Assembly: GCA_029856155.1 (NCBI GenBank)
Contig: JAHQWL010000075.1
Location: 55,561-119,560 of the forward strand
Direction of reading: 5' to 3'
Source of the DNA: Promethearchaeia archaeon
Lineage (GTDB): Archaea > Asgardarchaeota > Lokiarchaeia > Sigyniarchaeales > SOKP01
DNA length: 64,000 nucleotides
Part shown: piece after piece, positions 18,671 through 61,800 of the stretch
Numbering within the stretch: the stretch's first letter is position 1
Layout of the letters: every line of letters begins with the position of its first letter
The notes under the pieces: model-generated
The model's input: the letters and a program-made list of their open reading frames with translations, nothing else
Database searches by the model: none
Told to the model about the DNA's origin: nothing
Made by a program: the position numbers and the translations under genes

Positions 18671-19627
18671 ATGAATGGTTCAAAAGAATTAAATAAAATT
18701 CTTTTTTGTGGTTTAGAAAGTGGTGGAAAAACTTCAATTTTGCTATTATTAGATAAAAAATTTAGTTTATTACCTACAGTTAAACCGACTATAAAAGCAA
18801 AAAGAACTTTCTATACAAACTCATTATTGGGAACCTCAATTGTCCGTTGGGATTTAGGGGGTCAAAAAGGTTATAGAAAAATATATTTGGGTAATAAGAG
18901 CAAATATTTTACAGAAACGCAATCAATATTCTATGTTATAGATATTCAAGCACCTAAAAAATTTGAAGAATCATTAAGATTTCTTAAAGATATTGTAAGT
19001 GTAACCTCAGAGTCACATCCCGAAAATTTTCAGTTATTAATATTACTCCATAAATACGATCCTGACATTAAAAATAAGAAAGAAATTTTAGATCATATCA
19101 ATTACCTAGAAAATAAAATTTCATCTGCCATTAACAAAGTTAAGTTTTCTATTTTTAAAACTTCAATATATGATGAATCAAGTCTATTGAAGGCTTTTTC
19201 TGATGGTGTGTTTTTTGCAACACATAAGTCTAAAATGTTTGAAACCTTATTGAAAGAATATATGGGTAAAACTTACAATAGTTCTATGCTTCTACTTGAT
19301 CAGAATTGCTTTATAATTGCTAGTAGAACAACAAATGAAAGTTATCAGAAAATTTGTGAAGCTATCGCTCCAAGATTAACTCAAGCATTAGAAAAATTAG
19401 AGGAATGGGATATAAATACAATTGATATTGTAACAAATATAGAATTTCCAGAGAAACAATCAATCTATCAAAAAGAGGGAATAATCTTTCTTAGAAAATT
19501 AGATATAATTAAAACGAGATTTTATTTAATCGCACTTTGTCTAAATAAGAAAGTGAAAATTAAATCATATGAATATTTACCATTGTTAGCAGATAATTTA
19601 AAAAATTTACTAGAGAGTTTTGATTAA
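18671..19627 (+). CDS. Rag/Gtr-like small GTPase with C-terminal roadblock-like domain
   Basis: G1 GLESGGKTS, G2 PT, G3 WDLGGQ, Rag-type G4 HKYD and G5 TSIYD; about 130-aa C-terminal domain. Confidence 0.85.
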   Translation: MNGSKELNKILFCGLESGGKTSILLLLDKKFSLLPTVKPTIKAKRTFYTNSLLGTSIVRWDLGGQKGYRKIYLGNKSKYFTETQSIFYVIDIQAPKKFEESLRFLKDIVSVTSESHPENFQLLILLHKYDPDIKNKKEILDHINYLENKISSAINKVKFSIFKTSIYDESSLLKAFSDGVFFATHKSKMFETLLKEYMGKTYNSSMLLLDQNCFIIASRTTNESYQKICEAIAPRLTQALEKLEEWDINTIDIVTNIEFPEKQSIYQKEGIIFLRKLDIIKTRFYLIALCLNKKVKIKSYEYLPLLADNLKNLLESFD

Positions 19628-19812: not shown

Positions 19813-21006
19813 ATGATAGCACCATCCAATGTAAATAAATATTATGTAGGACCTAAAGCTTTATTTGACCCAGACTACATCCCCCCCCACCTATTATATA
19901 GAAAAAAAGAAGAAGATTCCCTCTTTTCTATTTTAAATGATTCAATTTCTGATGAGTTTAATCTCAACATACTCTATCAAGGAATTAATGGTATTGGAAA
20001 GAAAGTAATAGTTAATAAAGTATTAAACGATCTTTTAAACCAAAATAAAGAATTCGTTAAAATTAATAAAATTTGTGTAGATTGTAAAGAAAAGAATCCT
20101 GAAGAATTAATTTTTTTATTGTTAAGTGAAATTAACGGATTGTCAAATCTAAATTTCGATGTCCGACCACTATTAAATTCAGAAATACATCAATTATGGA
20201 ATACGTTTAAGTTCATTTGTAATAGATTTGATTCTCATTTATTTTTTATCTTTAATAACATCGAATATTTAGAACCCGAAATTTTTAATAAATTCTTACA
20301 ATTTGGCAAAGAGTCAAATATAACTCTAATATCTACTGTAAATAAAATTATACAACCTGGAACAATGGAATTATTCTCTGAATTTGATTTGAAAAAAAGA
20401 TTAAATTTTTATAATTATCAAGAGCTTTATTCTATTCTTAAACAAAGAGTATTATTAAGTTTTTCACAGGAAATAGATAGAAACCTAATTAGATACATAA
20501 CAGATTTAATCTGTGAGCAATATGTACCAGTTCCGGGTAAAGGAATTGAAATCCTTCGAGATTTATATCCATTATTAAAAAACAAAAATATTTTAGGCAA
20601 TTTTGATTTATTAGACATTTGTCAAAATAAATTTGACTCTTTTCAAATTTCTGATGAATTTAGTATGATTAACTATCTTTCTGAAGAAGATATATTGACA
20701 GTAATATTTTTAGATAATTTTTCAAATTATTTTATTAGTAAAAATAAATATTATATTTCTATAAAAGATTTACACGAATTATATGAAATTTCTTGTGAAA
20801 CTTTAGAATATGAAAAAAGTATTATTGAATTTCGTAAAATAACCGAAGAATTATTGAATATTGGAATTGTAAAACCATCAAAAAGAACATTTCATAAAAA
20901 AAGTACTCATGAAAATATTAATGGTTTAAATAATGATTCTTTCTTTATATTAATGAATCCTAAACAAATTAAGGTAATTATTGATGCAATTTTTAACCAG
21001 TGTTAA
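19813..21006 (+). CDS. divergent Orc1/Cdc6-family protein with degenerate ATPase motifs
   Basis: LFDPDYIP..L.YR N-terminus, Y...L..IL..R box, C-terminal wHTH; Walker A GINGIGKK and Walker B FNNIE are degenerate. Confidence 0.75.
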   Translation: MIAPSNVNKYYVGPKALFDPDYIPPHLLYRKKEEDSLFSILNDSISDEFNLNILYQGINGIGKKVIVNKVLNDLLNQNKEFVKINKICVDCKEKNPEELIFLLLSEINGLSNLNFDVRPLLNSEIHQLWNTFKFICNRFDSHLFFIFNNIEYLEPEIFNKFLQFGKESNITLISTVNKIIQPGTMELFSEFDLKKRLNFYNYQELYSILKQRVLLSFSQEIDRNLIRYITDLICEQYVPVPGKGIEILRDLYPLLKNKNILGNFDLLDICQNKFDSFQISDEFSMINYLSEEDILTVIFLDNFSNYFISKNKYYISIKDLHELYEISCETLEYEKSIIEFRKITEELLNIGIVKPSKRTFHKKSTHENINGLNNDSFFILMNPKQIKVIIDAIFNQC

Positions 21007-21176: not shown

Positions 21177-24100
21177 TTGACTCATATTAAAAAAATTTCT
21201 ATGAGTGGTTTCAAATCTTTTGGAGATCGAACAGTAACTATCAAGCTCTCTAGTGGATTCACATGCATCGTAGGACCAAATGGGGCGGGTAAATCTAATA
21301 TAATAGATGCTCTATGCTTCTCGTTAGGCAGATTAAGCAAAAAAACTATGAGAGCAAAAAGCTTAGAGGATCTAATCTTTGCTGGCTCACGAGGTAAAAA
21401 TCCCTCCCAGAGAGCTTCTGTTACATTATATTTTGACAATTCTGATAATGTTTTTCCAGGAGTGACTGGTGATTTTGAGATTACTCGCATTATTAAAAGG
21501 GGTGGTGGGGGAGGATATAAAATGAACGGAAAAAAAGTCACCCGTCAGCAAATACTTAACGCTTTAGCCGCGGCAAATATTGATCCTGATGGTAGTAATC
21601 AATTCGTATTACAAGGAAAGATTGTTGAATTAACACATATGAATCCTGAAGATCGCAGAAAATTTATTGAGGAATTAATAGGGCTTCAAAAATACGACGA
21701 AATGAAGGATGTTACTCTAAAGGAATTAGAAAAAGCAGAAAGAGATTTAGGACAGTTTGAAGCAATCTTCAAAGAAGTATCATCCCAACTGAAAAAAGTT
21801 GAAAAAGAAAAAAATGATGCTTTAGCTTGGAAAGAATTGGATGAGCAAATAAATTTCTTAAATTCACAGTTAATTGCCTTGAAAATTTCAAAATTAAGAG
21901 AAGAAGAAGATGAATTAGAAAAAAAAATTGACGTTTCTTCAAAAATCGTTGAAGAATTGCAAGAAAAAATAAACCGGCAAGAAGATGTATTAAAACAAGA
22001 ATCTCTTGTTATGGATAATATCCAAAAAACTATTACCGACAAAGAAAAGGAAAGAGAGCAAATAACCGAAAATATAACTCAAATAAAAACTCAAATATCT
22101 TCAAGTCAAACAACTTTAAATTTAGATATAAAATCTATTGATAAACTAACTAAAGAAATTGAATCCTTAGAAAGTCAGCAAATGAAACTTGAGGAGGGAC
22201 AGACTTTTGATTCATTAATAGAAAGTGTCTCAAATGAAATTTCAGAAAACGAAGATCATATTGAAGAAGCTAAAAAAGAAATTGAAAAAAGGCAACAAAG
22301 CCAAGCTGAACTAGACTTTAAAATAAAAAATAATGAAGATGAAAAATCCCTTTTTAAAGCAGAAATTTCTAAAATACAACAAAGTGTATCATCTAATAAC
22401 GCTCAAATTAAGGTTTTAAGAGGAAACATCAGAAAAAATGAAGAAAAGAAAGAAAAATTAGAAAACGAATTACAAAGGTTAAAAAAAGATGCTGAAAGCA
22501 TCGATGAGGCTATTGAAGTCACCAAAAAAGCAGAATCAGAAATTAGAAATAGAATAAACCAATTGAATATTAAAATTTCTAAAGAAAATCAAAATCAAAA
22601 AGATTTAGAAAATAACATTAACTCCATCCAAGCAGAAAAGAATCAGCTAAATTCTAAATTGGCAAACTTTCAAGCTACATTGTCCTCTATAAGTACAGAA
22701 ATTAAAATGAATCGTGAGAGCATACAAGAATTAAATGAAAAGAAAACTTCTATAGAGCAAAAGATTACGGATTTAAGTAAAGGTAAAGATGCTGAAAAAG
22801 CAGTAAAGGAATTACTGAGTGAAAATGATATTATTAATAAAGATTTAAGCGACTTAAAAGCAAAATTAAAACAAGAAAATTCAGTCTATAGGAAAAGTGA
22901 ACAAGATCTAGAATTATTGAAAATGAAGAAATATTCTTGTGAATCAGAAATCAGTGATAATAATGCAAAGATTGATAATATTAATACAGAACTAAAAATT
23001 CTTACAAAAGAATTAACATCCATGGATAGAGAGAAAAATAATTTAGAGTTGCAAGTAGATGCTCAAAATAACACTCTTACAGATATTACAAGTTCTACTG
23101 AAAAATTTATTATTAAAAAGGATAATGTACAAAGACGTTTAGAGGATCTTTCACAAGAAAAAGAAAATTTAACAAAAAAAATTGAGTCTTCAGAGGAAGA
23201 ATACGAGAAAAATACAAAAGATATTACAGGAATTCTCCAAATTTTAAATATGCTCACACAGAATATTAATATCTCAGTTGAATCTATTAAGGGTAATATA
23301 CAACAATCAAACGCAGAGGCAATTGAATCTTCAGCAGAAGATTTTAAAAAGTATATATTAGATATCATTGATATTATGAGAACAGTTGAGGATATTGGTG
23401 AAGACAGGGATAAATCTACTGAAATGACAGAAATGCTAGGTTCTATAATGCAAACTTTAAAAATGTTTACTGATAATGCTGATGACACAATTAGTCAATT
23501 AATCGATAAAGTAAAAGAATCAGCTGATATTGAAGTACAAAGTTCAACCTCTACATTTGATAGTTTTATTCAAGATCTAATGGAAATTCTTGAAAATGTA
23601 TATCTCTCTTTAAGAAAACTAACTATGTCTAAAAGTCAAGAACTATACAAACAATTGGAAGAAATTTCAGATACTATTAAATCGCAAACTGATGATTTTA
23701 ATAAAATTGAGAAAAAATTAACTGAAAGTAATATCCAAGAAAAACACCTATCTGAAAATCTTTCAACCTATAATAAAAGACTAAATGAAATAGATAAAAG
23801 AAATACTGAATTAACTGAAAGAATTAAAAAAGGAGAAGAAGCGATTAGTGAAAGAGAGGAAGTAATTAAGACCAGACAATCGGAAGCTAACACATTGGAT
23901 AATGATATAGAGAAATTAAAGAAATTAAAGGATACATATTGGGATAACCTTTCTACAATTCAAGATGATATTGATAAAAAACAAAAAGAATTAGAGAATC
24001 TGAGAGAAAAATTACAAGAATTGCATGGAATCCAGAATTTATTTGATAATATTACTGAAATTGATGATAACATAGAAAAATTGAATAACCTTATTGCAGA

Positions 24101-25628
24101 AAAGAAAAATTTAATAATAAACACAGAAGAAAATATTAAAAATATTCAAGAAGAACAAAACTCATATCAAAAAAAGATTGATGAACTAGTTCTAAAAAAG
24201 CAGAATTTCTGGGAAATAACAGAGAACTTGCGAAAACAAATCGATGATGAAAATAAAGTGCTTGAAGATACAATGGATCGTTTAAGAGCACTTGAAAATG
24301 TAATGAGGATTATCAACTCTATTGAAGATATTAAAAAAGAAAATAATGATGCTAAAAATAGCGTTGAAACTTGCTTAAAGGATATTGAAGGATTAAATTC
24401 TCAGGTTGAAGAGATCCAAAAAAATGTTGATCAAAAACAAGAAGTGTTAGATTCTTTAAGAAATGAAAAAACAGAAGAGTTAGAATCACAGAAAGCAGCC
24501 CAAAAGAAATTAAATAAATTGAATAAAGATTTGCAGAAATCTCAAGGGAAATTGAATGAGTTAAATAAAAATAAAGAAAGAGAACAGAAGATTATTGGGT
24601 TGCATCAAGATATAAAAGATACTGAAGAACAAATTGAATCAATAACAAAAGAATTAGGCAATTTTAAAGAGAATTTGGATAGTGAAAATGAAAAGAAAAC
24701 CGAGAAACAAAAGGAGATTGATAAATTTATACAAGAAAAAGATGAATCATGGAAAAAACAAAAACAATATCAGAAAAATATAACTGACTTAAAATCAGAT
24801 CTCTCTATGGAGAATTCTAAAATCAACAATTTTGAATCAAAAAAGATAATGTGCACTGATCAAATTGAAACTTTATTCCAGCGTTCTAAAGAATATGGGT
24901 CATTACCTCCTGTAACTGACGGACTTTCAGAAGCAGAATTACAATCAGATATTGTAGAAAAAACACAGAACAAAAAAACTCTTGAACCTGTGAATTTAAA
25001 AGCAATTGAACAATATGACACTGTAAAGGAAAGATTTGATGAGATAGATATGAGACGACAAACAATACAGAGAGAAAGGAAATCAATTCTAGATGCTATT
25101 GATAAAATTGAACTAGAAAAGACAAGAACATTCATGAAGGCTTATCACGAGATAAATAGAGAATTTAGTAGGATTTTTCAAAAGCTCAGTCCTGGTGGTT
25201 CAGCAAAAATGATTTTGGATAGACCAGATAAGCCATTTGAAGGAGGTATTAGCATAGAAGCAAGACCAAGGGGTAAAAAAATCAGCTCATTAGAAATATT
25301 AAGTGGTGGTGAAAAAACATTAGTAGCGTTATCTTTTATATTTGCTGTTCAAGAATTTTATCCCGCTCCATTTTATGTAATGGATGAGATCGATGCGGCT
25401 TTGGACGGTCCAAACGTCCACAGAGTCTCTACAGTCATAAAGGAATTTGCTTCACAAGCTCAATTCATGGTAATAAGTCATAGAGAAGAGAATATTGTAA
25501 ATGCAGATAGGATATACGGTGTATCCATGCAACAATCAGGTATTACAGACATATTTAGTGTTGATTTAGAGGAAGAGGCAAAACGTATTTTAGAACTTGA
25601 GGATATTGAGCCAACTATTACAGATTAA
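21177..25628 (+). CDS. smc: chromosome segregation ATPase SMC (atypical: 1483 aa, no recognisable hinge)
   Basis: GFKSF, Walker A GPNGAGKSN, Q-loop LQG, PVN..AIE, signature LSGGEK, Walker B/D-loop MDEIDAALD, ISH; followed by scpA and scpB. Confidence 0.93.
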   Translation: MTHIKKISMSGFKSFGDRTVTIKLSSGFTCIVGPNGAGKSNIIDALCFSLGRLSKKTMRAKSLEDLIFAGSRGKNPSQRASVTLYFDNSDNVFPGVTGDFEITRIIKRGGGGGYKMNGKKVTRQQILNALAAANIDPDGSNQFVLQGKIVELTHMNPEDRRKFIEELIGLQKYDEMKDVTLKELEKAERDLGQFEAIFKEVSSQLKKVEKEKNDALAWKELDEQINFLNSQLIALKISKLREEEDELEKKIDVSSKIVEELQEKINRQEDVLKQESLVMDNIQKTITDKEKEREQITENITQIKTQISSSQTTLNLDIKSIDKLTKEIESLESQQMKLEEGQTFDSLIESVSNEISENEDHIEEAKKEIEKRQQSQAELDFKIKNNEDEKSLFKAEISKIQQSVSSNNAQIKVLRGNIRKNEEKKEKLENELQRLKKDAESIDEAIEVTKKAESEIRNRINQLNIKISKENQNQKDLENNINSIQAEKNQLNSKLANFQATLSSISTEIKMNRESIQELNEKKTSIEQKITDLSKGKDAEKAVKELLSENDIINKDLSDLKAKLKQENSVYRKSEQDLELLKMKKYSCESEISDNNAKIDNINTELKILTKELTSMDREKNNLELQVDAQNNTLTDITSSTEKFIIKKDNVQRRLEDLSQEKENLTKKIESSEEEYEKNTKDITGILQILNMLTQNINISVESIKGNIQQSNAEAIESSAEDFKKYILDIIDIMRTVEDIGEDRDKSTEMTEMLGSIMQTLKMFTDNADDTISQLIDKVKESADIEVQSSTSTFDSFIQDLMEILENVYLSLRKLTMSKSQELYKQLEEISDTIKSQTDDFNKIEKKLTESNIQEKHLSENLSTYNKRLNEIDKRNTELTERIKKGEEAISEREEVIKTRQSEANTLDNDIEKLKKLKDTYWDNLSTIQDDIDKKQKELENLREKLQELHGIQNLFDNITEIDDNIEKLNNLIAEKKNLIINTEENIKNIQEEQNSYQKKIDELVLKKQNFWEITENLRKQIDDENKVLEDTMDRLRALENVMRIINSIEDIKKENNDAKNSVETCLKDIEGLNSQVEEIQKNVDQKQEVLDSLRNEKTEELESQKAAQKKLNKLNKDLQKSQGKLNELNKNKEREQKIIGLHQDIKDTEEQIESITKELGNFKENLDSENEKKTEKQKEIDKFIQEKDESWKKQKQYQKNITDLKSDLSMENSKINNFESKKIMCTDQIETLFQRSKEYGSLPPVTDGLSEAELQSDIVEKTQNKKTLEPVNLKAIEQYDTVKERFDEIDMRRQTIQRERKSILDAIDKIELEKTRTFMKAYHEINREFSRIFQKLSPGGSAKMILDRPDKPFEGGISIEARPRGKKISSLEILSGGEKTLVALSFIFAVQEFYPAPFYVMDEIDAALDGPNVHRVSTVIKEFASQAQFMVISHREENIVNADRIYGVSMQQSGITDIFSVDLEEEAKRILELEDIEPTITD

Positions 25629-25656
25629 TGAAAATATTTCATAGAGGTAGGTAATA

Positions 25657-26664
25657 ATTTCAAAAAATGAACAAAATTCAGTTGAAAAACATAATTTTAA
25701 TGAATGGACTATAAAAGATTTAAGGGAATTTGCATCGAAAAACAACATTAAAATTCCTTCTAAATCTAAAAAAAAGGATATTGTTGAATTACTACAAAAT
25801 ATAACATCTAATCCCGATTTCGTTGATCGATCCCTAGAAGAAGAAATGGAAGAACCTGAAATAGAATTAGTTGCTGAGTTTGATGATGATGAGGATCTTG
25901 CATTATTGAGAAAAGAGAAAGCTGAATTAAAATTTTGGCAAAAACCACCCTTTTCAAGTCTTTTAGATACAGAATTAGCAAAAGAATCCGACATTGCATT
26001 TTATGATTTATCAAAATTAGTAGATACTTTTTTTGATAATATGCTACATGAAGAATTGATTAATTATAAGATTTCTGGAATTGCGCTTAAAACGTCGGCA
26101 TCTTTACATCATTACAAAATCTCAAGTATAATAAAAGAAGAAGAACAAATTCAGAAAAGAGAAGAACTAGAAAAATTCAGACAAAGTCATTCTAGAACAA
26201 TCCCAAAAGCATTACCTCAGCCAATTTCCCCTAAAATGCAAATTGCTACCAAAGATGAACTATTTGATGCTATGCGATCAGCTATTATTGAAGTTATGCA
26301 GAATAAAGAAAAGTTAAAAAGAAGAAGAATGCGAAGAGAAGAGCTTAAAGATCAGAAGATCCAAATGAAGTCTAAAGCACAATTACCCAAAGAACTCTTA
26401 AAACATATTAGTGGAAAGGAGCAAACAGTTGAAGAATTGCATGAATCATGGTACAATCGAATAAAAGCTACCATCAATTTAAACAATAAAGAGACTAATA
26501 TTTATGATTTAATGAATATTATTAAAAATGAAGAAAAAAGTAGTATAGGGCGGAAATTTTCATTAGTACGTATGTTTTTAGCTTTAATGTTTTTATCTAC
26601 TGGAAGTAAGTTATACTTATCTCAAGAGGAAGATTTCCAAAATATTTCAGTAGATATTGGTTAA
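25657..26664 (+). CDS. scpA: kleisin ScpA with N-terminal helix-extension-helix (SAP/Rho-N-like) domain; probable ATT/ATA start
   Basis: Kleisin N-domain (DL..LV..F...SG..L..SA.L...K) and C-terminal wHTH (FLALMFL...L.QEEDF..I). The frame is open upstream of the track's ATG 25846 to a TAG at 25648-25650. Confidence 0.8.
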   Translation: MSKNEQNSVEKHNFNEWTIKDLREFASKNNIKIPSKSKKKDIVELLQNITSNPDFVDRSLEEEMEEPEIELVAEFDDDEDLALLRKEKAELKFWQKPPFSSLLDTELAKESDIAFYDLSKLVDTFFDNMLHEELINYKISGIALKTSASLHHYKISSIIKEEEQIQKREELEKFRQSHSRTIPKALPQPISPKMQIATKDELFDAMRSAIIEVMQNKEKLKRRRMRREELKDQKIQMKSKAQLPKELLKHISGKEQTVEELHESWYNRIKATINLNNKETNIYDLMNIIKNEEKSSIGRKFSLVRMFLALMFLSTGSKLYLSQEEDFQNISVDIG

Positions 26665-26704: not shown

Positions 26705-27658
26705 TTGGAAGAAGAACAGAATGGAGAACCAAATGAGGAAATAGAAAATAATCATGCTAACACTTTTGATGAAGAAAATATAGAAGAATTTGAAGAAGAA
26801 ATTACAGATTTAGAAAATGTGTCTGAAGAAGAGTCTATACAAAGAGATTCAAATGATTCAATAGAAGAAATTGGAGATAATGTCATTGAAGAACAAGAAA
26901 TAGAATCAGAAGATATTGAGAAAACAGAATTAACTGAAGAATATGATAACGAACCAGAAAATCTTCTAATAGAAGAATCTATGGATACGCAAATTGTTGA
27001 AGATGGAAAAATTATAGAAGATGATATGTCAGAAAGTACCATAGTTGATGAAAAAGCATTAGAACTTGATGAAAAAGCTCTTCGTCGAAATTTCATTGAG
27101 GCCGCTTTTTTTGCCGCTGGAGGTCCTTTAACAATAGAAGAGTTATCAAATAAATTAGAATTTTCAAAAAAGGAAGTAGAAAATTTAGTAAATGAATTAG
27201 CCTTTGATTATTTAGAGCGTACTACGTCACTAATAATAGCACAAATTGGAGATAGATATCAAATGCAAATTAGACCAGAATACACAGAAAAGGTATCCAA
27301 ATTTGCAAAAGGGGGGGCAATAGCAGAGAGGTATTTAAGAACTTTGACGATTGTTGCTCTAAAGCAACCAATCTTAAAATCAATGGTGATAAAATTAAGG
27401 GGTAGCGGAGCATATGAGCATGTGAAATACCTTTTAGACAACGACTTCATAAAAGCCGTAAAAAAAGGAAGATCTCACGAACTATCAACTACTGATAAGT
27501 ATGCTGAAATGTTCGGATTGCCAAAAGATATAAGATTGCTGAAACAAGCTATGATTACTCAATTAGGACTTGAAGAAGGAGGAAAAAGTGAGCCTTCAGG
27601 TGAAATTGAGAACGCGGATCAAGGTGAACCTTTGAGTGAAAGTGAAGAAGAAGAATAA
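26705..27658 (+). CDS. scpB: SMC-Scp complex subunit ScpB with acidic N-terminal extension
   Basis: IEAAFFA..P, LRTL..VA.KQPI, RG..AY.HV..L, TT..Y..MFGL. Confidence 0.92.
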   Translation: MEEEQNGEPNEEIENNHANTFDEENIEEFEEEITDLENVSEEESIQRDSNDSIEEIGDNVIEEQEIESEDIEKTELTEEYDNEPENLLIEESMDTQIVEDGKIIEDDMSESTIVDEKALELDEKALRRNFIEAAFFAAGGPLTIEELSNKLEFSKKEVENLVNELAFDYLERTTSLIIAQIGDRYQMQIRPEYTEKVSKFAKGGAIAERYLRTLTIVALKQPILKSMVIKLRGSGAYEHVKYLLDNDFIKAVKKGRSHELSTTDKYAEMFGLPKDIRLLKQAMITQLGLEEGGKSEPSGEIENADQGEPLSESEEEE

Positions 27659-43668: not shown

Positions 43669-46600
43669 TTGAGTGCGTTTAAAATTACATCGGAAGAAGA
43701 AGGAAAAATCAAACAAGGAACCATCGCAGAATATATGCGTAAGAGGACACAATTAGTTGGTTTTGAATTTGGGTACTGGAAGCATGTGCAATATTGTAGT
43801 GAGTTTCTGGACAATGCATTAGATGCCATTGAAAGTTTTCAATGGAAACAATTAAAAAAAAAAGATTCCAAAATCAAATTTTCTTTGGATCAAGAATTAT
43901 TTTTAGAGAAATTCTCCATTCTTGAGGCTGCAAAGGAAGAAAAAAGATCTCAGCACTTAGATAACGAAGCAAAACATACTTTAATGCAAGAATTCGGTAT
44001 TGAATCCACGGAATCCGATACTGCTATTGCTCAAGAACTAGAAATTAGAGAAGAAGAATCTGGAGAAATAATTGATAAAGAAGAGTTAGAAGTTGAAGAG
44101 GAGGTCAAGAGAATAATTGATGACATGCAGGAGATCATTAAGCCTGTTGAATACATCATTGATGTAGAACCTATAGTAATTCTTCGTCTCAAGGAATATG
44201 AAGCAGCTTCGTTTTTAACTTCTGAAATTAGCCAGAAAAATATCATGAGTTTCACTTTTGAAATTTTTGATAATGGCACGGGAATGTCAAAAATTGATTT
44301 AAAAAAATTTGGACGATATCTTGCCTCCTCAAAATCTATTGAATTAAAACAAACTAGAGGAAGTCAAGGATTTGGTGCACCAAGTGCTTTCAGTGATGCT
44401 CAAAACACAACTGGGAAACCAGTTATTACAGTTTCAAAATCAAGTGAACAAGTCTATGCTATGTGTTCAGAATTTTTCACTACTTCTAAAAATGAAAAAA
44501 AATATTTAATTCATCCAACTGAAATTGACAGTCCCTTTTTACATGGTACTTACATTAAATTAAATTATCTAAATGTAAGATATGTTAGGGGATATGTTGA
44601 AAAATACATTGAAGAAACAGCATTTATGAATCCTCATGTTACGCTTATTTATATTGATCCTTTTGGAAAGGAAAAAATTTATCGAAGATTAGCTACTTCT
44701 TTCCCACCTGAACCTAAATATGCCAAACCTCATCCTTCGTCTACTAATATAGGAGATCTACAAGATCTGATTACAAAATCCGAAAATAAATCCATGTCGG
44801 CGTTCTTACAAGATAATTTCGTTAGAATGAGTTCAAAAATAGCTAAAGTAATTGTAGATATTGCCGAAAGAGATTTACAAGATAAGTTAAATTTACTAAT
44901 ATTGAAAGATGGTTTTGTCAATTTAGTTAAGAAAAAGACAGATCCAATTTATTTAATGCGAGATGAAAAAAGGATATACGGGCGTTCTACTAAACCACGA
45001 GACAAATTAATAATTTATCAAGTTGAATCAGAAGAACTTAAAGGAAAATATTGGGATTTTATATCAAATTATAATAAATATATTAGAGATTATGAAAAAA
45101 TTAATAAAGAGATAAAGAAACTAAATAACCAAATTGAAAAAACTGGAACTAAAAAAGAAATTACTGCTATCGAGAAAGAAATTAAAAAGTTTTTAAAAAA
45201 AATTGAGGACAACAGAAAAGAAAAAGATATAATTAAGGGAAATTTAAATAATCTATTTAAAGATGTTAATGATGGATTGATTGAGCAAAAAAAAGTTAGG
45301 AATAGAACAGATTTTGAAGTTTTAGTTAATGAAGTCCAAATATCTAAAGTAAAACCTGTTGATTCAACAAAAGAGCAATTTAATTCTCTATTCCTTGCTT
45401 TCAAATCAATGAAGTATATGGCTCCTCCAACAGACACAGCAATTCCCGTAGGAGAATCTATATTAGAGAATACACTAATTAAAGAAATTGGGTTACGAAT
45501 TTCAGATAATATCGATGATTTTGATATACCTATCGACACAATTAGGCAAACAACTGAATTATTACATGAAGAAAAAAAGAGGATATTATTAAAAGAAGAA
45601 AAAAAGATTCATGACGATGAAATTACTAATATTAAAATAGATTCAGAAGAGCTTATCAACTTAAATTCTGAAATATTGGGGACTATTGATATTCTCGATG
45701 ATACTTTTGATTATCAACAAGTAAAACCAACAATTGAAGATATTCTTAGCTTTTCTGATATTACCTCTGTAGAAAGCTATGGCGATTTATTTGACTATTT
45801 CCTTGAAACCTTTACAAAAGATGACGATTTTGTTGCAGCAGAAACAAGACCACCTACAAGCGGAAAAGGCTTAGCATATGTAGTTGAAGCGGTAATGGCC
45901 TATTCTAGAAGTATTGAAGTTCCTAAACGCTCAAGAGACGTTTTATCGAGGTTTGTGAATAGAACACCGAAATTAAGAGATAGTGCTGATTGTGCTATAA
46001 CAAAAGCAGTTCAATCAGTAAATTGGAAGAATTATAATCTTGAAACATATGATAATGGCTTGCCAAGAGGGCCAATAAAACTATTAGTTAATGTTTCTGG
46101 ACCATTTGTGCATTTAATGTTTAAATCACAATCAAAAAATGCCCTAGCTGATGATGAAGATTTAATTAAAGAAATGAAATATTGTCTTGAAGCAATAGGA
46201 AGAAGATTACGAGTATATATCAATAGAAGAGCTAGTATACATAAAAGTGAAAAAAGAGCTAGTTTAATAGAGAAGTATATCCCAACATTCGTTAAAAGTG
46301 TATATAATATCGCATCTCGGGGGGAGAGTAAATATAAAGCAAAATTGGATATTAAAGAAATTGAAGATTTAATGAAGGGAGCAATAGGCAAAAAAAAAGC
46401 TCCAGTCATTGTTAAAGATTTAAAATCCGAAAAACCTGAAATTAAAGAAGGAGAAATTAAAAAAGAAGAACCAAAGGAAGTTGAGACCCTTAAAGAAGAG
46501 ATTGATATTAAAAAAGAAATTTCTATCGAAAAACCGAAACCAAAAAAAGAATTAATTTCTAAAAAAACCCTACTTAATTGGACTATTAAAGAACTCAAAG

Positions 46601-47037
46601 ATTATTGTAAAGAACATGATATAATAATACAATCAAAAGAAAGAAAAAATGACATTATTGATAAGATTTTAGATTCATTTACTGCTGAGAAAGTTTCAGA
46701 GAAACCAGAAAAAATTGAACCTTTAGTTCCAGAAATCATCACAGAAAAACCAATACCTTTAATAGTATCTCCTATGAAAAAACCTATACCAACTACCACT
46801 CAAAAAGCACCTTCAAAACCAAAATCAACTCAAACAACACTTCCCATTATTACTACTGATAGAATTTTTTCTGTATTGTCAAAGGAGTGGCAAACTATAA
46901 AACATCTTATCTTTAAATTAAAAATTAAAGACATGATGGATGCTCGTTACCTTCAATTGAAGTTAAAAGAATTAGAACGTAAAGGGCAAGTATTGGTTGA
47001 GGTTAAAATGGGTAGAAAACATTGGAAATTGAAATGA
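43669..47037 (+). CDS. top6B: DNA topoisomerase VI subunit B, greatly expanded (1122 aa)
   Basis: GHKL motifs EFLDNALDA, DNGTGM, QTRGSQGFG; KPHP; transducer RFVNR.P and NWKNY; adjacent to top6A. Confidence 0.92.
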   Translation: MSAFKITSEEEGKIKQGTIAEYMRKRTQLVGFEFGYWKHVQYCSEFLDNALDAIESFQWKQLKKKDSKIKFSLDQELFLEKFSILEAAKEEKRSQHLDNEAKHTLMQEFGIESTESDTAIAQELEIREEESGEIIDKEELEVEEEVKRIIDDMQEIIKPVEYIIDVEPIVILRLKEYEAASFLTSEISQKNIMSFTFEIFDNGTGMSKIDLKKFGRYLASSKSIELKQTRGSQGFGAPSAFSDAQNTTGKPVITVSKSSEQVYAMCSEFFTTSKNEKKYLIHPTEIDSPFLHGTYIKLNYLNVRYVRGYVEKYIEETAFMNPHVTLIYIDPFGKEKIYRRLATSFPPEPKYAKPHPSSTNIGDLQDLITKSENKSMSAFLQDNFVRMSSKIAKVIVDIAERDLQDKLNLLILKDGFVNLVKKKTDPIYLMRDEKRIYGRSTKPRDKLIIYQVESEELKGKYWDFISNYNKYIRDYEKINKEIKKLNNQIEKTGTKKEITAIEKEIKKFLKKIEDNRKEKDIIKGNLNNLFKDVNDGLIEQKKVRNRTDFEVLVNEVQISKVKPVDSTKEQFNSLFLAFKSMKYMAPPTDTAIPVGESILENTLIKEIGLRISDNIDDFDIPIDTIRQTTELLHEEKKRILLKEEKKIHDDEITNIKIDSEELINLNSEILGTIDILDDTFDYQQVKPTIEDILSFSDITSVESYGDLFDYFLETFTKDDDFVAAETRPPTSGKGLAYVVEAVMAYSRSIEVPKRSRDVLSRFVNRTPKLRDSADCAITKAVQSVNWKNYNLETYDNGLPRGPIKLLVNVSGPFVHLMFKSQSKNALADDEDLIKEMKYCLEAIGRRLRVYINRRASIHKSEKRASLIEKYIPTFVKSVYNIASRGESKYKAKLDIKEIEDLMKGAIGKKKAPVIVKDLKSEKPEIKEGEIKKEEPKEVETLKEEIDIKKEISIEKPKPKKELISKKTLLNWTIKELKDYCKEHDIIIQSKERKNDIIDKILDSFTAEKVSEKPEKIEPLVPEIITEKPIPLIVSPMKKPIPTTTQKAPSKPKSTQTTLPIITTDRIFSVLSKEWQTIKHLIFKLKIKDMMDARYLQLKLKELERKGQVLVEVKMGRKHWKLK

Positions 47038-50119: not shown

Positions 50120-53100
50120 GTGAAAATTTTGGTTATAGAAATAATACTGCTTATTGTCTTTATCATCTTCTTTTTAATTGGATTTTATATAATATATAAA
50201 CAAGTTGCATTAGTTAAAAAAGGAGAATTGAGTAATAAAGATCGATTCCAGTGTTTATTCTACGGAATGATCTTTAGCTTCTCTATTATGGTTGTTTTTA
50301 CAGTTGCTGTAATTTTTACTGTAAGAACACCTGAACTTTGGGACCCTGAAACTACACCCCCAGATGTCCATCCTCTAGCATTATTAATTCCTTTTATTTG
50401 TTGCTTAATTTATTTAACAATTTATCCAATTATAGATTTCCTTTTTATTGCTTTAAGTAAAGAAAAAGATGAAGGATTGACCCCCTTTCATAAATTTATA
50501 AGAAACAAGATTATTTATCTCTCAAGTAATAAATTTACAAATGTATTAATTGCTTTAGTCTTTTTTATCTTAGTCTTTGTTCTCCCTCCTATTATATTGT
50601 CAATAATAGGGTTACCTTTTATAGTGATTTGGATAACATGGAGTCTTGTTTACCCCCTAATGATATTAACTTTTTATGGGTCTAAAGGATATATTGCTGG
50701 ACTTTCAGATGCTTATTATCATATTCCTGACGTAAGAAGATCAATTTTTCTTAATTTTGAGAATACTAAAAGAGGACTAAACCAATTCAAATCTGAACCA
50801 GGATACTACATTATCTTAGGTTTAATGATTTTTGTATTTATATGGGCTTGGATTTCATTATTCCAGACTATAGGTTTCTTTTTTACAAAAACATTGGCAA
50901 TATCAACCATGTCTTCTGTTTTTGTATTTGTAACTTTATTTTTTGGTATTATAGGATATTTTACACGTTTTTGGGGAAGAAAAATAAAATACCGAGGCAT
51001 TGATATATACTTTGCTGCTTACTTAATGGCATCTATAGGGATCAACGTTTTAGTTAATTTCTTAATAGTAAATCCTAAAAAATTGTTGTTTACTTTTAAG
51101 CTATGGACCCTCACTAATCAAATCGTTCCAAATTTTGTTATGTTTGCTTGGGCTGCTGTTATTGAAGAAATAGTATTAGTCATTTTTACTTCATACTTTT
51201 TTTTAGCAAGAAATAATGAATTTATTACTAATATTAAATATTCTAAAATTACTAAATCTGGTCAAACTTTTGATCCAATTCCACTATTTAATTTAATTAA
51301 ACATCGTAATAAGAAAATAAGCAAACATGCGGAACAAACCTTGGTATTGATGTTTGAAAGAATTCCCTTAAAAAATGAAATAGATCTTAATAAATGGAAA
51401 TTTAAAAATTCCTTGTTAGATGGAATATGTGAAGATAATCCAAATTCAAGAGAAATTTGTAAAAAAATATTAATTCAATTAGAAAAGGACATTCCAGAGA
51501 AAATATTACCTTGGATAATAGAAGCATTAGAATCTCCTAATTATGATAAATCGATCCCTATTACAAGATCACTCCTAAAAACAGATATAGATTTCATTGA
51601 AAAAATCCCTAATAATTTGATTATTAACTTAATTGAAGATTCAGAATGGAGAATAAAATTATTAGGAGTTAAAATTTTAAAAAGACTCCTAAAGAAAAAT
51701 AATGATTTGATTCATAAAGTAGATATTAAAAACCTAATAAATAACCCAAATAGTAGGATTCAAGTCGAGATTCTAAATATTTTAGCAGAATCTTCTTATG
51801 TACTTCCTATTGATACTATAATTCAAAAAATATTTCATATTAATAATGAAATTAGCGCAGCAGCAATTAAAAATCTAAAAAATCTTGACTATAAAGATAT
51901 TGACAAAAAAATGATTTCTAAAATTATTCCTCTGATGAAGGATCCATCTAGTTCTGTAAGAGCTTCAATTTTTGATGTGATTACAAAAATTGGTAATTTT
52001 AGAAAAAATAATATTCCAATTTTGCCCCTCTTTGAGGGTTTAACTGATTCAAATGAAAGAACTCGAGAAGCAGCTATAAATGTACTGGAAAAATATTTTG
52101 AAGAGGAACCCGGGTTGTTAGATATTGACAATATAATTAATAAAATCGATCCAAATAATTTTGAAGTACTAAATAGCTTTGTTTCACTTCTCGGAAGATT
52201 ATGGAAATATAACCCTGATAAAATATTAACTATTTTTTTAGCATATATAAAATTCGAAAATAAACAATTAAGAGAAAATATTTCAAATATTTTAATAGAA
52301 AAATATACTAAAAACCCTGATTTAATAGTTCAGAACTTAATTAAGATCCCAGATGTTACGAAATATATAACCAAAGGCATCATATCACAGACATTTATCA
52401 ATATTGGTAAAAGAGATCCAAAAAATATAATTCTAAGCTTAATAAATTATCTTAATGATGAAAATGATGATGTAAGATTAAATGCTCTAAATGCAATTGA
52501 TGGATTGATTGAAGAATTTGTTGATTATAGTGATTTGAAACCAATCCTATTACTATTACGGAAAGACAAAAACAAACAAGAAAAGAAAACAACCTCAAGT
52601 ATTATTTCAAAAATAGCTCAAAAAGATTCTTCTCTGATAAAACCATATATGTCTGAATTCTTACAGATATTAACTAAACAAGAGATATCTGTAAGAATTG
52701 TACTTACTAAATCTCTTTTAGATATTGCTAAAGATTCTCCAGATATCATTCCCGTCCAGGAAATTCTAAATTTTCTTAACGATCAAGATTCATTTATCCG
52801 TGAAACTAGTGCGAAAATTCTAGGGTATATTGGATATAAACTTCCGATATCAGTTACAGATGCATTAATTAACAGAGCATCAAATGATGATGAATGGATT
52901 GTCAGAGAGGCAGCTGTTACAAGTTTAGGAGAAATAATTAAACATACTGATAAAAAGGAAAAAATCATTGAAAAACTGGTTTCTTTACTTAATGATGAAG
53001 AAAATTGGGTTCGGAGGTCGGTTTTGAATATTTTATCAACTATTAAAGAGGTAAATAATTCTCACATTTCTTTTAATGATTTAAGAAATAATTTAACAAG

Positions 53101-53473
53101 CACTGATCCAAAAGTTAGAGAAGCTTCAGTTGGTTTAATTCGAATTTACAGTAATCAAATCGAAGAGATTTTTAATAAGATCGTGATATTATTAGAAGAT
53201 GAATCAAAAGAAGTAAGAGCTAGAGCTATTAATAGTTTTGTTGAAATAATACAAGAAGTAGGACTTAACCAGATTTTATCAAAATTATTAAAAAATCTAA
53301 GTGATGAAGGATCTATAGAAACTCAGCGTTCAATTGCATTAATTTTAGGACGAACTGTTAAATATGAGGATAAAGAGATTAAAAAACGAGTCATTTCTCT
53401 GTTAAAAATAAGATGTGAAATGAGCCAGGATCCTACTATTTGTGGGATCTTGCAACAATTAAAAGAGAGTTAA
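50120..53473 (+). CDS. polytopic membrane protein with long C-terminal HEAT-repeat solenoid
   Basis: About 8-9 hydrophobic helices in the first 360 aa; repeated L.D....VR..A...L units thereafter. Confidence 0.85.
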   Translation: MKILVIEIILLIVFIIFFLIGFYIIYKQVALVKKGELSNKDRFQCLFYGMIFSFSIMVVFTVAVIFTVRTPELWDPETTPPDVHPLALLIPFICCLIYLTIYPIIDFLFIALSKEKDEGLTPFHKFIRNKIIYLSSNKFTNVLIALVFFILVFVLPPIILSIIGLPFIVIWITWSLVYPLMILTFYGSKGYIAGLSDAYYHIPDVRRSIFLNFENTKRGLNQFKSEPGYYIILGLMIFVFIWAWISLFQTIGFFFTKTLAISTMSSVFVFVTLFFGIIGYFTRFWGRKIKYRGIDIYFAAYLMASIGINVLVNFLIVNPKKLLFTFKLWTLTNQIVPNFVMFAWAAVIEEIVLVIFTSYFFLARNNEFITNIKYSKITKSGQTFDPIPLFNLIKHRNKKISKHAEQTLVLMFERIPLKNEIDLNKWKFKNSLLDGICEDNPNSREICKKILIQLEKDIPEKILPWIIEALESPNYDKSIPITRSLLKTDIDFIEKIPNNLIINLIEDSEWRIKLLGVKILKRLLKKNNDLIHKVDIKNLINNPNSRIQVEILNILAESSYVLPIDTIIQKIFHINNEISAAAIKNLKNLDYKDIDKKMISKIIPLMKDPSSSVRASIFDVITKIGNFRKNNIPILPLFEGLTDSNERTREAAINVLEKYFEEEPGLLDIDNIINKIDPNNFEVLNSFVSLLGRLWKYNPDKILTIFLAYIKFENKQLRENISNILIEKYTKNPDLIVQNLIKIPDVTKYITKGIISQTFINIGKRDPKNIILSLINYLNDENDDVRLNALNAIDGLIEEFVDYSDLKPILLLLRKDKNKQEKKTTSSIISKIAQKDSSLIKPYMSEFLQILTKQEISVRIVLTKSLLDIAKDSPDIIPVQEILNFLNDQDSFIRETSAKILGYIGYKLPISVTDALINRASNDDEWIVREAAVTSLGEIIKHTDKKEKIIEKLVSLLNDEENWVRRSVLNILSTIKEVNNSHISFNDLRNNLTSTDPKVREASVGLIRIYSNQIEEIFNKIVILLEDESKEVRARAINSFVEIIQEVGLNQILSKLLKNLSDEGSIETQRSIALILGRTVKYEDKEIKKRVISLLKIRCEMSQDPTICGILQQLKES

Positions 53474-58842: not shown

Positions 58843-61800
58843 ATGTCTGAATTAAGAGAGGAAATATTAGGAGGAGGTATTAATAAAAAGCGAATTATTG
58901 GTACAGTATTAATAGCAATGCTTTTAATTGGTATTTTTGCCTTCTCAATGACTTTCTATAGTTTTCTCTTTGGTTCTCAAAGACCAACTCCAAGTGAACA
59001 AAAAAAAAATACGCCAGAGGAGGACGCTTTATTAATAAAACCACCTTTTCCCTTTGATGAAGATTTTTGGAAAGATTTATTAGATGACTTTTTAGATAAC
59101 TTTAATCTTAGTCTTTTAGAAGATTTAAACATAGACAATGAAACTCTTATGGATATGTTATCTGATCTGCTTGATGGAGACCTAAGTGATCTAGATTTGG
59201 GAAATTTTTCTATAGGCCAACTTCTCCCCTTACTAGCCTTACTTGGTTTAGCAGGTGGTGGAGATATAGAAATATTTAGAGTATTTAACTACAATTCCTT
59301 AGATAACATGACAGATGTATTATGGAAATTTGAATGTTTTGACGAATATACTGGTGATGGATGGCATTCTACAGCAAGTTCAGGTACATATGATTTTTAC
59401 AATTTACTTGATTATTATTCCAAATATGATCAAGGTATAGATCTTTTAAAAATAAAAAAGCCCGTTCCTTCTCCTGAAATTGGAATAAATACTATGGTTA
59501 TACCAACACTTTTCCCTTCGCCATTTGTAATAGATGGAAGCGTGTATGCTCCTAACTTAAATTTAGGATCTACCACTCTTCATAAAAATGATTATAATTG
59601 CACTACACTAGATCTCTACTTTGATTCAACTGAAGGTGTAAATATGACATACGAAATGTTTGGTCTACACTTACCTACAGATCAAGAAATAAATAGTAGT
59701 GCTGTTGAAGCTACTTATACGCCATCATATATAAAAACCAAATATTTACAATTACCTCCAACAATAACGGTTTATAAAACCAATAATCCAAATTTCAATA
59801 CTCATTATAATACATTAAACACTATAATAAATGCCAATGAAAATGCTTTTGTAGTTGCTAATAAGATCAAGGATTATCTTAATACATACTTTAACCTTCC
59901 AATGACTTTTGAGGAAGTTAATAATTATGAAGCGGCTCCAGAAGGAACGGATATTGTTGAATGGTTTTGCCAAACCCAAACAGGATTATTTTCTGATTTT
60001 GCATCAGCTTTTTGTGCTTTTTCAAGAGCTTTTGGAGTAGCAAGCAGATTTGTTGACGGTTTCAATAGTTTTGGGATTGAAGAATTTACTGATTATGATG
60101 AAGGGCAAAACTGTTTTGCCATAAAATATGAAAACCTCTATAGTTGGGCAGAAATTTATGTCCCAACAGATATTTCTGGAAATGGTAAATGGGTTCAATT
60201 TGATATTAAACCATTAAATGTATTGGGAGGGAATTATAGTATAGAAGTTACTACAGACAAACTGAACTATACAAGACCAGATATTGTTTATATAAACGCT
60301 AATTTAACTTCTGGGAGTAATCCAGTTGAAAATGAACTTATTACTTTTACAGATTTAACAAGTAATGAAGTTATTGGCCAAAATTTTACAAATTCTTTTG
60401 GTATAGCTTCAATAGAATATAATTTAAATAATTCGCATGTTGTTGGTGCTCATGTAATTGAAGCAAAATATGATGATGTTACTTTTGATCAAACTAAAAT
60501 TGGTGTATTAGGGAATATTTCAATTATTTTATTAAATATTAATCCGAATATAGTAAATATCTCTGATACTCAACCAGATGTAGTCAATGTTCAAGGATAT
60601 CTTTATGATCCATTAAATGGTAAAGGAGTTAAAAATGCTCTTGTTGAAATTGTTTTGCTAGAAAAGGGGACAAGTACAGAAATATTTGGAGCTTTTAATA
60701 TTCCTTGGTTAGTTACCGATTCTAATGGCTATTTTGATGATTCTCTGAATCTAACTGTTAGTAATGCTGGACAATACGAAGTGAGGGCTGATTTTGATGG
60801 AACTTGGGTTATTAATTTGCCTTCAGAATTTTCATGGACAATTTCTAGTATCATAAATTCAAGCAATAGATTAGAATTAAATATTACTAAAGATCTAACA
60901 CCATGGTTCTATATTGATGGTATCCCGACTAGCATTCCAAATATTCCTCGTGTTTCTCGATACCAAAATCTAAATCTCACTGTAAAAGTGGTTTCAGCAA
61001 GTTTTGGACCAGTACCAAATAAATTAGTATCTTTTTATGATTATTCTAGAGGGGGGACTTTTATTGGATCTGATATTTCAGATGCAAATGGACTTGCCTC
61101 AATAAATTATTTTGTAGGGGATTATTGTGTCGCAGGACCCAATTTATTATATACTAGAATCGGTTTTCAAGAAAATTATTCTTATTTTGTTCTGAATGAA
61201 GAACCTACAATAAATATTATTTCTGGACCATCACCTCAAGTTATCAATCGTACTGGTGGTGGAACCACCCAATTTAATATTATAGGAGAAATTTATGATA
61301 GTACTAACAACTCTTTACCAATAAGTTATTCTGAAATTACTTTATTATTATTAAAAGGTGGAGCAGATTATTCTTCCTATTTAGTTCCAGGTGAAAGTTA
61401 TCCGTATCAAACCGATTCAACTGGTTCTTTTGATCTCACTTTTGGAGTTACTCCAACCACCCCACCAGGAAATTATACATTAAGATTAGATTTTAATGGA
61501 ACAATTAATTTATTCTTCAATCCTTATCCTTTTCCATTCAATTTACCATTTATTAATACTTCTACGGTTTTTAGTAATGATTTGCAAATCAAGGTCCCAG
61601 CTACATTAGGATTCAGCTTTTTGATTAATGGAACTACGTCTGATAATGTTTACATCCCAATTATTAATCGTTATGACGATCTCGATCTCACAGCTTATAT
61701 ACAATATGACGGGATTCCTATTGATGATGGAGAATGGGTTTACTTCTATGATGTGACTCAAGACAACCTTTTAATTGGTTCTGATCAAACGATTAATGGA

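Follow-up and report, generated by a model that had tools for sequence, protein, structure and literature searches.

A condensin-type Smc of Lokiarchaeia with an unrelated helical apex in place of the hinge

A gene for an Smc protein with condensin-type ATPase heads and no hinge was found in a 64,000-nucleotide stretch of DNA from a Promethearchaeia archaeon (GenBank assembly GCA_029856155.1, contig JAHQWL010000075.1, positions 55,561 to 119,560 of the forward strand). This whole stretch is referred to below as the window, to which all positions refer, and the assembly as the source genome. The protein is a natural kleisin- and kite-associated Smc in which an all-helical apex, not homologous to the alpha/beta hinge, takes the place of the hinge. 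We consider it rather likely, in part from structural models, that it forms a complete and independent Smc-ScpAB complex, with an unrelated helical dimerisation tip instead of the hinge and with the ring closed by ScpA. The gene and its parts, with residues numbered in amino acids (aa), are as follows.

21177..25628, plus strand: smc, open reading frame (ORF) with a TTG start; 1483 aa; condensin-type heads, no hinge.
21177..21671, plus strand: N-terminal head lobe; PF02463; Walker A at aa 33-40, R59, Q-loop Q146; invariant in 27 orthologues.
21684..23204, plus strand: N-terminal arm helix; ~505 aa with a heptad period of 3.5, in ~97-aa modules.
23205..23399, plus strand: apex helix A; aa 677-741; copy 1 of a duplicated 71-aa unit; hydrophobic fraction 0.38, period 3.64.
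23400..23417, plus strand: tip loop; aa 742-747; variable in length and sequence.
23418..23630, plus strand: apex helix B; aa 748-818; copy 2 of the unit; kink at N767, which is invariant in 27 orthologues.
23631..24986, plus strand: C-terminal arm helix, in 90-aa modules.
24987..25628, plus strand: C-terminal head lobe; signature at aa 1375-1379, Walker B and D-loop at aa 1401-1410, H-loop H1435.

Both heads proved to be intact, as a first-pass annotation made from the sequence alone had stated. SMC_N was matched at E 1e-33 in a Pfam scan, and the C-terminal head was most similar to Smc of Pyrococcus (E 2e-61), followed by Smc of Bacillus subtilis (1e-43), SMC1/3 (1e-31) and Smc5 (1e-6). All head motifs were invariant across 27 aligned orthologues. 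The signature, H-loop and Q-loop were kept in all of 148 full-length homologues, Walker A in 146 and a strict Walker B pattern in 134, and within the genus the heads were 0.92-0.99 identical. The smc-scpA-scpB operon of the same annotation was recovered as well, ScpB being identified by PF04079 (E 5e-33) and ScpA by an Asgard profile; in the loci read, the hinge-less smc was always followed by scpA and scpB.

The absence of a hinge and of a CxxC zinc hook, also reported from the first reading, was borne out by each comparison. SMC_hinge (PF06470) was not detected in the 1483-aa protein even at E<=1; as a positive control, the same scan detected the hinge of canonical Loki Smc at E 1e-28 to 1e-32. 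Neither CxxC nor Gx6Gx3GG was present in any of the 27 aligned orthologues, and among the 148 full-length homologues no hinge was revealed by Pfam or by a home-built hinge hidden Markov model (HMM), and CxxC occurred in none. Proteins matching aa 600-900 numbered 171, with PF06470 in none among the 120 matches listed. Profile comparison by hhalign gave the apex a probability of 0.3% against the canonical hinge and of 0.2% against the eroded hinges of related Asgard Smc, while eroded against canonical hinge, used as a control, gave 99.6%. A remote homology between apex and hinge was rejected on these values.

Misassembly was excluded because colinear full-length orthologues occur in many independent assemblies, including single-contig genomes. 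Such orthologues of 1470-1500 aa were found throughout the genus and in other families, and the lengths of the 148 full-length homologues formed two groups, of about 1290 and about 1480 aa. The hinge-less Smc is encoded in P. syntrophicum MK-D1 (DSAG12_00820, WP_147661926) and also in Ca. Harpocratesius repetitus, Ca. Sigynarchaeum springense and L. ossiferum (P0180). One might still suppose that the centre is a highly diverged hinge, since the sister clade in a tree of the heads has eroded hinges and hinge decay has thus occurred nearby, or that the gene is misassembled. We regard this as barely credible, given the hhalign values of the eroded hinges and of the apex, the modelled centre without a strand (see below) and the 148 independent full-length homologues. 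Single stops or frame breaks were seen in the hinge-less smc of three assemblies (L020 (G006), G022:C180 and G026:C133), which are probably sequencing errors.

The centre of the protein is predicted to be a plain helical hairpin. AlphaFold2 modelling of aa 630-854 as a monomer (80 sequences) gave a helix at 631-741, a loop at 742-747, a helix at 748-766, a break at N767 and a helix at 768-853, with a mean pLDDT of 81 and no strand. This agrees with the helical centre almost free of Gly and Pro that had been noted at first; aa 683-818 contain 4 Gly, 0 Pro and 0 Cys. The two halves of the apex are copies of a 71-aa unit (half against half, hhalign 98.3%, E 1.8e-14, 61 ungapped columns), and they differ from the arms in hydrophobic fraction (0.37-0.38 versus 0.24-0.26), in helical period (3.64 versus 3.5) and in the fraction of Lys plus Arg (0.06-0.09 versus 0.18-0.19). 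Over the last ~65 residues of both helices the heptad pattern gives way to an 11/3-like period with extra hydrophobic residues. By established coiled-coil rules, a hydrophobic, non-heptad pattern of this kind is expected of a helical bundle and not of a two-stranded coiled coil. Conservation within the genus was 0.80-0.89 for the apex versus 0.64-0.65 for the flanking arm.

As judged by sequence or model, each Smc chain doubles back on itself at a 6-residue turn to form a single long antiparallel coiled coil. The distance from head to tip is about 520-570 residues, roughly 80 nm, compared with about 50 nm in canonical Smc. The arms are assembled from modules of ~97 aa on the N-terminal and 90 aa on the C-terminal side, and the 1299-aa form of Sigynarchaeum is shorter by exactly one module per arm, i.e. 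by aa 491-587 (a 97-aa module of the N-terminal arm) and by 90 aa between aa 854 and 951. These steps are near the 91-aa period followed by the lengths of functional Smc arms in B. subtilis (PMC5344682). In fold searches, models of the apex region matched the Smc arm fragments 5nnv and 5xg2. With the single hairpin, no match at E<=0.001 was obtained by Foldseek and only generic hairpins by VIA (Z<=11.9, root-mean-square deviation (rmsd) 7-8), the top matches including chemoreceptor hairpins (3g67, Z 11.9, rmsd 7.4); no hinge-type fold covering the apex was matched in these searches. In searches of the ESM Atlas with the apex, no match reached 0.9 and the structural rows were weak.

Apex modules were also found in proteins that lack ATPase heads. 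Genomes of the MK-D1 family encode a protein of 920-1290 aa with two apex modules, flanking coiled coil, a beta-rich-looking domain with no Pfam match and an H1-like Lys-rich tail (MK-D1 DSAG12_01461, L092:4984-7746; L. ossiferum WKT22_04228; loci L088-L094). The spacing of the two modules, measured as HMM offset, was 250-253 aa in all six members measured. An AlphaFold model of the headless protein placed the tips at 112 and 364 and the base turn at 238, with 126 residues each way (pLDDT 86.7, pTM 0.57), so that the two hairpins stand in exact parallel register. Its best fold matches were 4uos (Z 13.7, rmsd 3.3, 188/188 aligned, model 64-420) and 9n0i (Z 13.1, rmsd 2.9, model 86-395), both of them single-chain four-helix bundles, and the aligned ranges cover both hairpins. 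The model suggests that the headless tandem is a natural single-chain stand-in for the apex dimer, packed side by side with the tips together. Headless proteins with a single module occur in relatives (P0207, L223:5001-6710). No second apex-bearing protein was found in the source genome, and nearly all genomes of its family gave a single match.

In the genome counts that follow, related genomes are not independent and most are metagenome-assembled genomes (MAGs). The apex profile matched 131 of the 154 genomes of the order, a few of them by the headless protein alone. Strong matches outside the order were confined to 2 of 246 other Asgard genomes (G224 and G236) and are probably misbinned, the contigs being short and the proteins closely like those of Loki. 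Weak matches outside Loki (P0218, P0226 and four genomes at E 1e-5 to 8e-4) were set aside, as they appear to be generic 11-mer repeats. Among 1.8 billion representatives, 31 proteins matched at E<=1e-10; those examined were Loki-type Smc, fragments and headless proteins, and no confident non-Loki SMC was among them.

A strong canonical hinge was detected in 26/154 genomes of the order and in none of the genomes of its two largest genera (0/53 and 0/42), while the deep-branching genera retain canonical hinged Smc-ScpAB too. A search of the source genome for a second, hinged smc did find one, but of a different type: its one hinge is that of a 1155-aa SMC encoded on contig C26, which lies with a small kleisin-like and a kite-like gene and falls in the SMC5/6-related clade of the head tree. 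An SMC5/6-related identity of the hinge-less protein was rejected, that complex (Nse4/Nse1-3-type operon) being this separate gene set on C26. Nearly every genome of the order encodes a hinged complex of the SMC5/6-like kind. All eight tested genomes with both Smc types have two ScpA and the source genome has one; the hinge-less complex is therefore complete and independent, and the hinged Smc complex appears to have been lost as a unit. For most genomes of the order, the hinge-less complex is the sole condensin-type complex detected. MK-D1 encodes three SMC complexes (hinge-less, canonical and SMC5/6-like), and L. ossiferum at least the hinge-less and the canonical complex, plus a second hinge match. 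For two genomes from the same genus, the canonical hinge detected lies in a separate ORF of 233-245 aa (L128:3524-4258, L129:3719-4417); these are either remnants of a hinged smc or free hinge proteins.

The first-pass annotation had left two options, an apex that dimerises and one that is monomeric. The former is favoured indirectly by the hydrophobic face, the conservation and the bundle in the tandem headless paralogue, and dimerisation side by side is probable to about the same degree as the complex proposed at the outset. Two hairpins would pack next to each other with their tips together as a four-helix bundle of ~10 nm, which would take over the part of the hinge in closing the Smc2-ScpA ring. 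As in other Smc-ScpAB, DNA would be loaded and translocated by ATP-driven engagement of the heads. A long bundle is unlikely to part in the way a hinge does, so DNA would be expected to enter and leave on the side of the heads and kleisin. Binding of DNA by the acidic apex is improbable, and the lost contact may be supplied by ScpA, i.e. by its HeH domain in the family of the source genome or by its Lys-rich tail in the MK-D1 family; binding of DNA by these segments in place of the hinge is a conjecture of ours. That a tip other than a hinge can work is indicated by B. subtilis, which grows normally with the hinge swapped for a zinc hook (PMC5344682). As the hinged complex is absent from most genera, the chromosomes of these cells are probably organised mainly by the hinge-less one. 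A wider proposal, which we put forward tentatively, is that a fully functional, loop-extruding condensin, its ring closed by a four-helix bundle unable to open as a hinge does, replaced the hinged complex in its role of main chromosome organiser across most of the order, and that the tip would be a portable dimerisation module, used also in headless proteins of a DNA-binding-like kind which imitate Smc tips or tether them.

Several points weigh against this picture. Dimerisation, ATPase activity and DNA loading of the hinge-less Smc are predicted. The bundle appears only when another protein is modelled, one in which the two modules are covalently linked and resemble each other at about 20-25%, and its geometry was deduced from the secondary structure and the ranges aligned in fold searches and not by inspection of coordinates; moreover, Z values of about 13 for helical bundles may reflect just a common arrangement. 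The loss of the hinged complex was inferred from incomplete MAGs. Owing to the pseudo-symmetric repeat of the apex, the surfaces engaged in parallel packing would resemble those engaged tail to tail, and this last point leads to an alternative in which the apex dimerises tail to tail (antiparallel, RecN-like) or forms oligomers or filaments, yielding an extended bridge of ~150 nm and not a ring. The 71-aa duplication makes the hairpin pseudo-two-fold symmetric, so that the geometry suits an antiparallel bundle equally well; RecN has no hinge and dimerises by its helical tips, and chemoreceptor hairpins, which were among the top single-hairpin matches (3g67), form higher-order arrays. We nevertheless think it unlikely, because the tandem paralogue keeps its two modules in exact parallel register, the conserved kleisin and kite require two heads of one complex to meet, and the arm length varies in set steps, as it does in ring-forming Smc.

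It is more doubtful still that the apex does not self-associate and serves as a docking site for headless proteins, the membrane or a cytoskeletal anchor, the chains being joined by arms, heads and kleisin. Relatives have headless proteins, with either one or two apex modules, that could pair with Smc tips, and the amphipathic 11-mer pattern recalls apolipoprotein-type helices (PF01442 on the apex at E 8e-4, far below cut-off). The source genome, however, has no second apex protein, and since nearly every genome of the family gave one match, no apex-type partner is generally available; also, the viable B. subtilis swap still contained a dimeriser (PMC5344682). An alternative partly compatible with the proposed structure concerns the role: the complex would be intact but have a specialised job, such as plasmid or virus restriction or repair, while the SMC5/6-related complex does the housekeeping. 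The near-universal presence of the latter in the order and the canonical hinged Smc-ScpAB retained in deep-branching genera would fit such a division. It is nonetheless an improbable explanation, as the hinge-less Smc is near-universal and single-copy and tracks host taxonomy, its heads are very conserved, and no nuclease gene was found beside it in any locus read.

In the head tree, which was built without eukaryotic sequences, the hinge-less proteins formed one clade (100/100) whose branching tracks host families. They grouped with canonical archaeal Smc, apart from SMC5/6 and Rad50, and were separate from the hinged Loki Smc. Their sister group was Smc of Helarchaeota/f26 with shortened, eroded hinges, with ultrafast bootstrap (UFBoot) values of 100 under LG+F+G4 and 96/95 under C20; from the C20 tree, 28 of 68 rows had been dropped as near-duplicates or long branches, and a quick C20 search gave no decision on the sister group. 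The approximately unbiased (AU) test did not reject a grouping with the hinged Loki Smc (p 0.24); erosion of the hinge followed by its replacement may therefore be taken as a lead, not as a result. The hinge loss is best read as derived and not as a eukaryotic precursor state, because it is confined to one Lokiarchaeia order. The first-pass description of the lineage as close to eukaryotes therefore holds for the phylum but not for the trait.

Other unusual Smc proteins were seen in Asgard genomes. Paralogues with eroded hinges (L166, L189, L120, L216, L221, L111, L144) occur in Helarchaeota, in f26 and as a second Smc in Jordarchaeales; in these, PF06470 is weak or absent, the hinge is shortened and the Gly motifs are partly lost. 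The Helarchaeota MAG Meg19_1012_Bin_504 (L155:1345-5127; G389 contig C109) encodes a 1260-aa Smc with condensin-type heads and no hinge that carries CxxC midway along the chain, at about aa 622-626, and has no Pfam match to Rad50_zn_hook. Its middle was found in 1/400 Asgard genomes, and an ScpA is encoded 15 kb from it on that contig; it is possibly a natural zinc-hook Smc. An intein was present in an Smc N-terminal head just after Walker A (L108:435-4592, G074, Odin-like family; PF14890 E 3e-24).

With Smc-ScpAB of Pyrococcus and B. subtilis (PDB 5xei, 3zgx, 5xg3) the complex has in common the heads, the ATPase motifs, the operon and the long antiparallel arms; it differs in the absence of an alpha/beta hinge, in the unrelated helical apex, in arms about 1.6 times longer and in the extra N-terminal HeH or Lys-rich segment of the kleisin. 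It would work like Smc-ScpAB but has no hinge. The MukB family was unmatched in the Pfam scan and the partners are ScpA and ScpB, not MukEF or MksEF; length alone is similar to MukB/MksB/JetC. A helical tip without hinge or hook is shared with RecN, a short bacterial repair protein that has no kleisin and a tail-to-tail geometry. Rad50/SbcC and the archaeal ASRPs (ClsN, Sph; PMC9389158) are likewise SMC-superfamily ATPases without a hinge, but they dimerise by a CxxC zinc hook, whereas the homologues described here are free of CxxC and have condensin-type heads with kleisin and kite. In the engineered B. subtilis Smc(Zh), the hinge was swapped for the zinc hook of Rad50 (PMC5344682); this too is a non-hinge tip on Smc-ScpAB, while the Loki tip is natural, order-wide and without a metal site.

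A hinge-less SMC clade has been described from marine Actinomycete metagenomes, and no replacement domain was reported for it (PMC12153180). It also has SMC heads, no hinge and no CxxC, but is bacterial and known from metagenomic genes, whereas the Loki clade is archaeal; a further point of difference is that tandem occurrence with a regular SMC is absent. The two are likely to be of independent origin, as judged from the apex profile, which gave no confident non-Loki SMC among the 1.8 billion representatives, the matches being partly traced. In P. syntrophicum, van Hooff et al. (10.1101/2024.01.07.573240) listed a 'condensin/cohesin-related' complex (genes NZ_CP042905.1_810-808), which is very probably the hinge-less operon of DSAG12_00820, because this is the only smc-kleisin-kite run of such type found in MK-D1 and because the 315-gene distance to the SMC5/6 operon fits a chromosomal distance of ~319 kb. 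The missing hinge is not mentioned in that work or its supplements, the latter using the word 'hinge' 0 times, and archaeal SMC surveys contain no mention of hinge loss. The clade was undescribed in the literature searched, subscription journals being outside its coverage.

The genes adjoining smc are as follows.

25654..26664, plus strand: scpA, kleisin; probably 336 aa from a non-ATG start; N-terminal HeH/SAP-like domain at aa 15-50; first ATG at 25846.
26705..27658, plus strand: scpB, kite; PF04079 E 5e-33; acidic tails; sole PF04079 match in the genome.
19813..21006, plus strand: AAA gene, degenerate Cdc6-like, directly upstream of smc and co-oriented with it; AAA_22 at E 0.014 only, altered Walker A.

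ScpA gave a weak Pfam match but E 4e-68 against the Asgard ScpA profile, which includes this ScpA, and independent phmmer matches to other Asgard ScpA at 1e-14. The reading frame of scpA extends over 337 codons, and the HeH/SAP-like domain (Ish1 E 2.2e-6, over cut-off; Rho_N and HeH weak) precedes the first ATG. Translation probably starts about 190 nt before this ATG, at ATA/ATT at 25654/25657, which are preceded by a GAGGT Shine-Dalgarno site; with a start there (window 25640-25660), gene callers would cut off the HeH domain. ScpA of the MK-D1 family has a Lys-rich tail in place of HeH, and neither segment is present in most other Asgard ScpA, which measure about 220-250 aa. The Cdc6-like AAA gene does not adjoin smc in MK-D1 or Harpocratesius. 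A promoter and terminator scan gave chance level. The window also encodes a Rag/Gtr1-like small GTPase with a C-terminal extension (18671-19627; PF04670 E 1e-23), a usual Asgard eukaryote-signature protein, and three further long ORFs (58843-63330, 1495 aa; 43669-47037, 1122 aa; 50120-53473, 1117 aa).

Whether the SMC hinge does no more than dimerise, or is also required as a DNA gate and a DNA-binding element in loading and loop extrusion, has long been asked, and the prior evidence for a swappable hinge was one engineered B. subtilis chimera. The Lokiarchaeia order provides a natural experiment, in which an unrelated, acidic, all-helical tip stands on an otherwise orthodox Smc-ScpAB in most of its genomes (131/154), and MK-D1 and L. 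ossiferum permit the SMC complexes to be compared directly in cultured species. It is also a natural case of arm growth by whole modules of ~97/90 aa, and it changes how the Asgard 'condensin-related' exemplar is read in work on SMC evolution.

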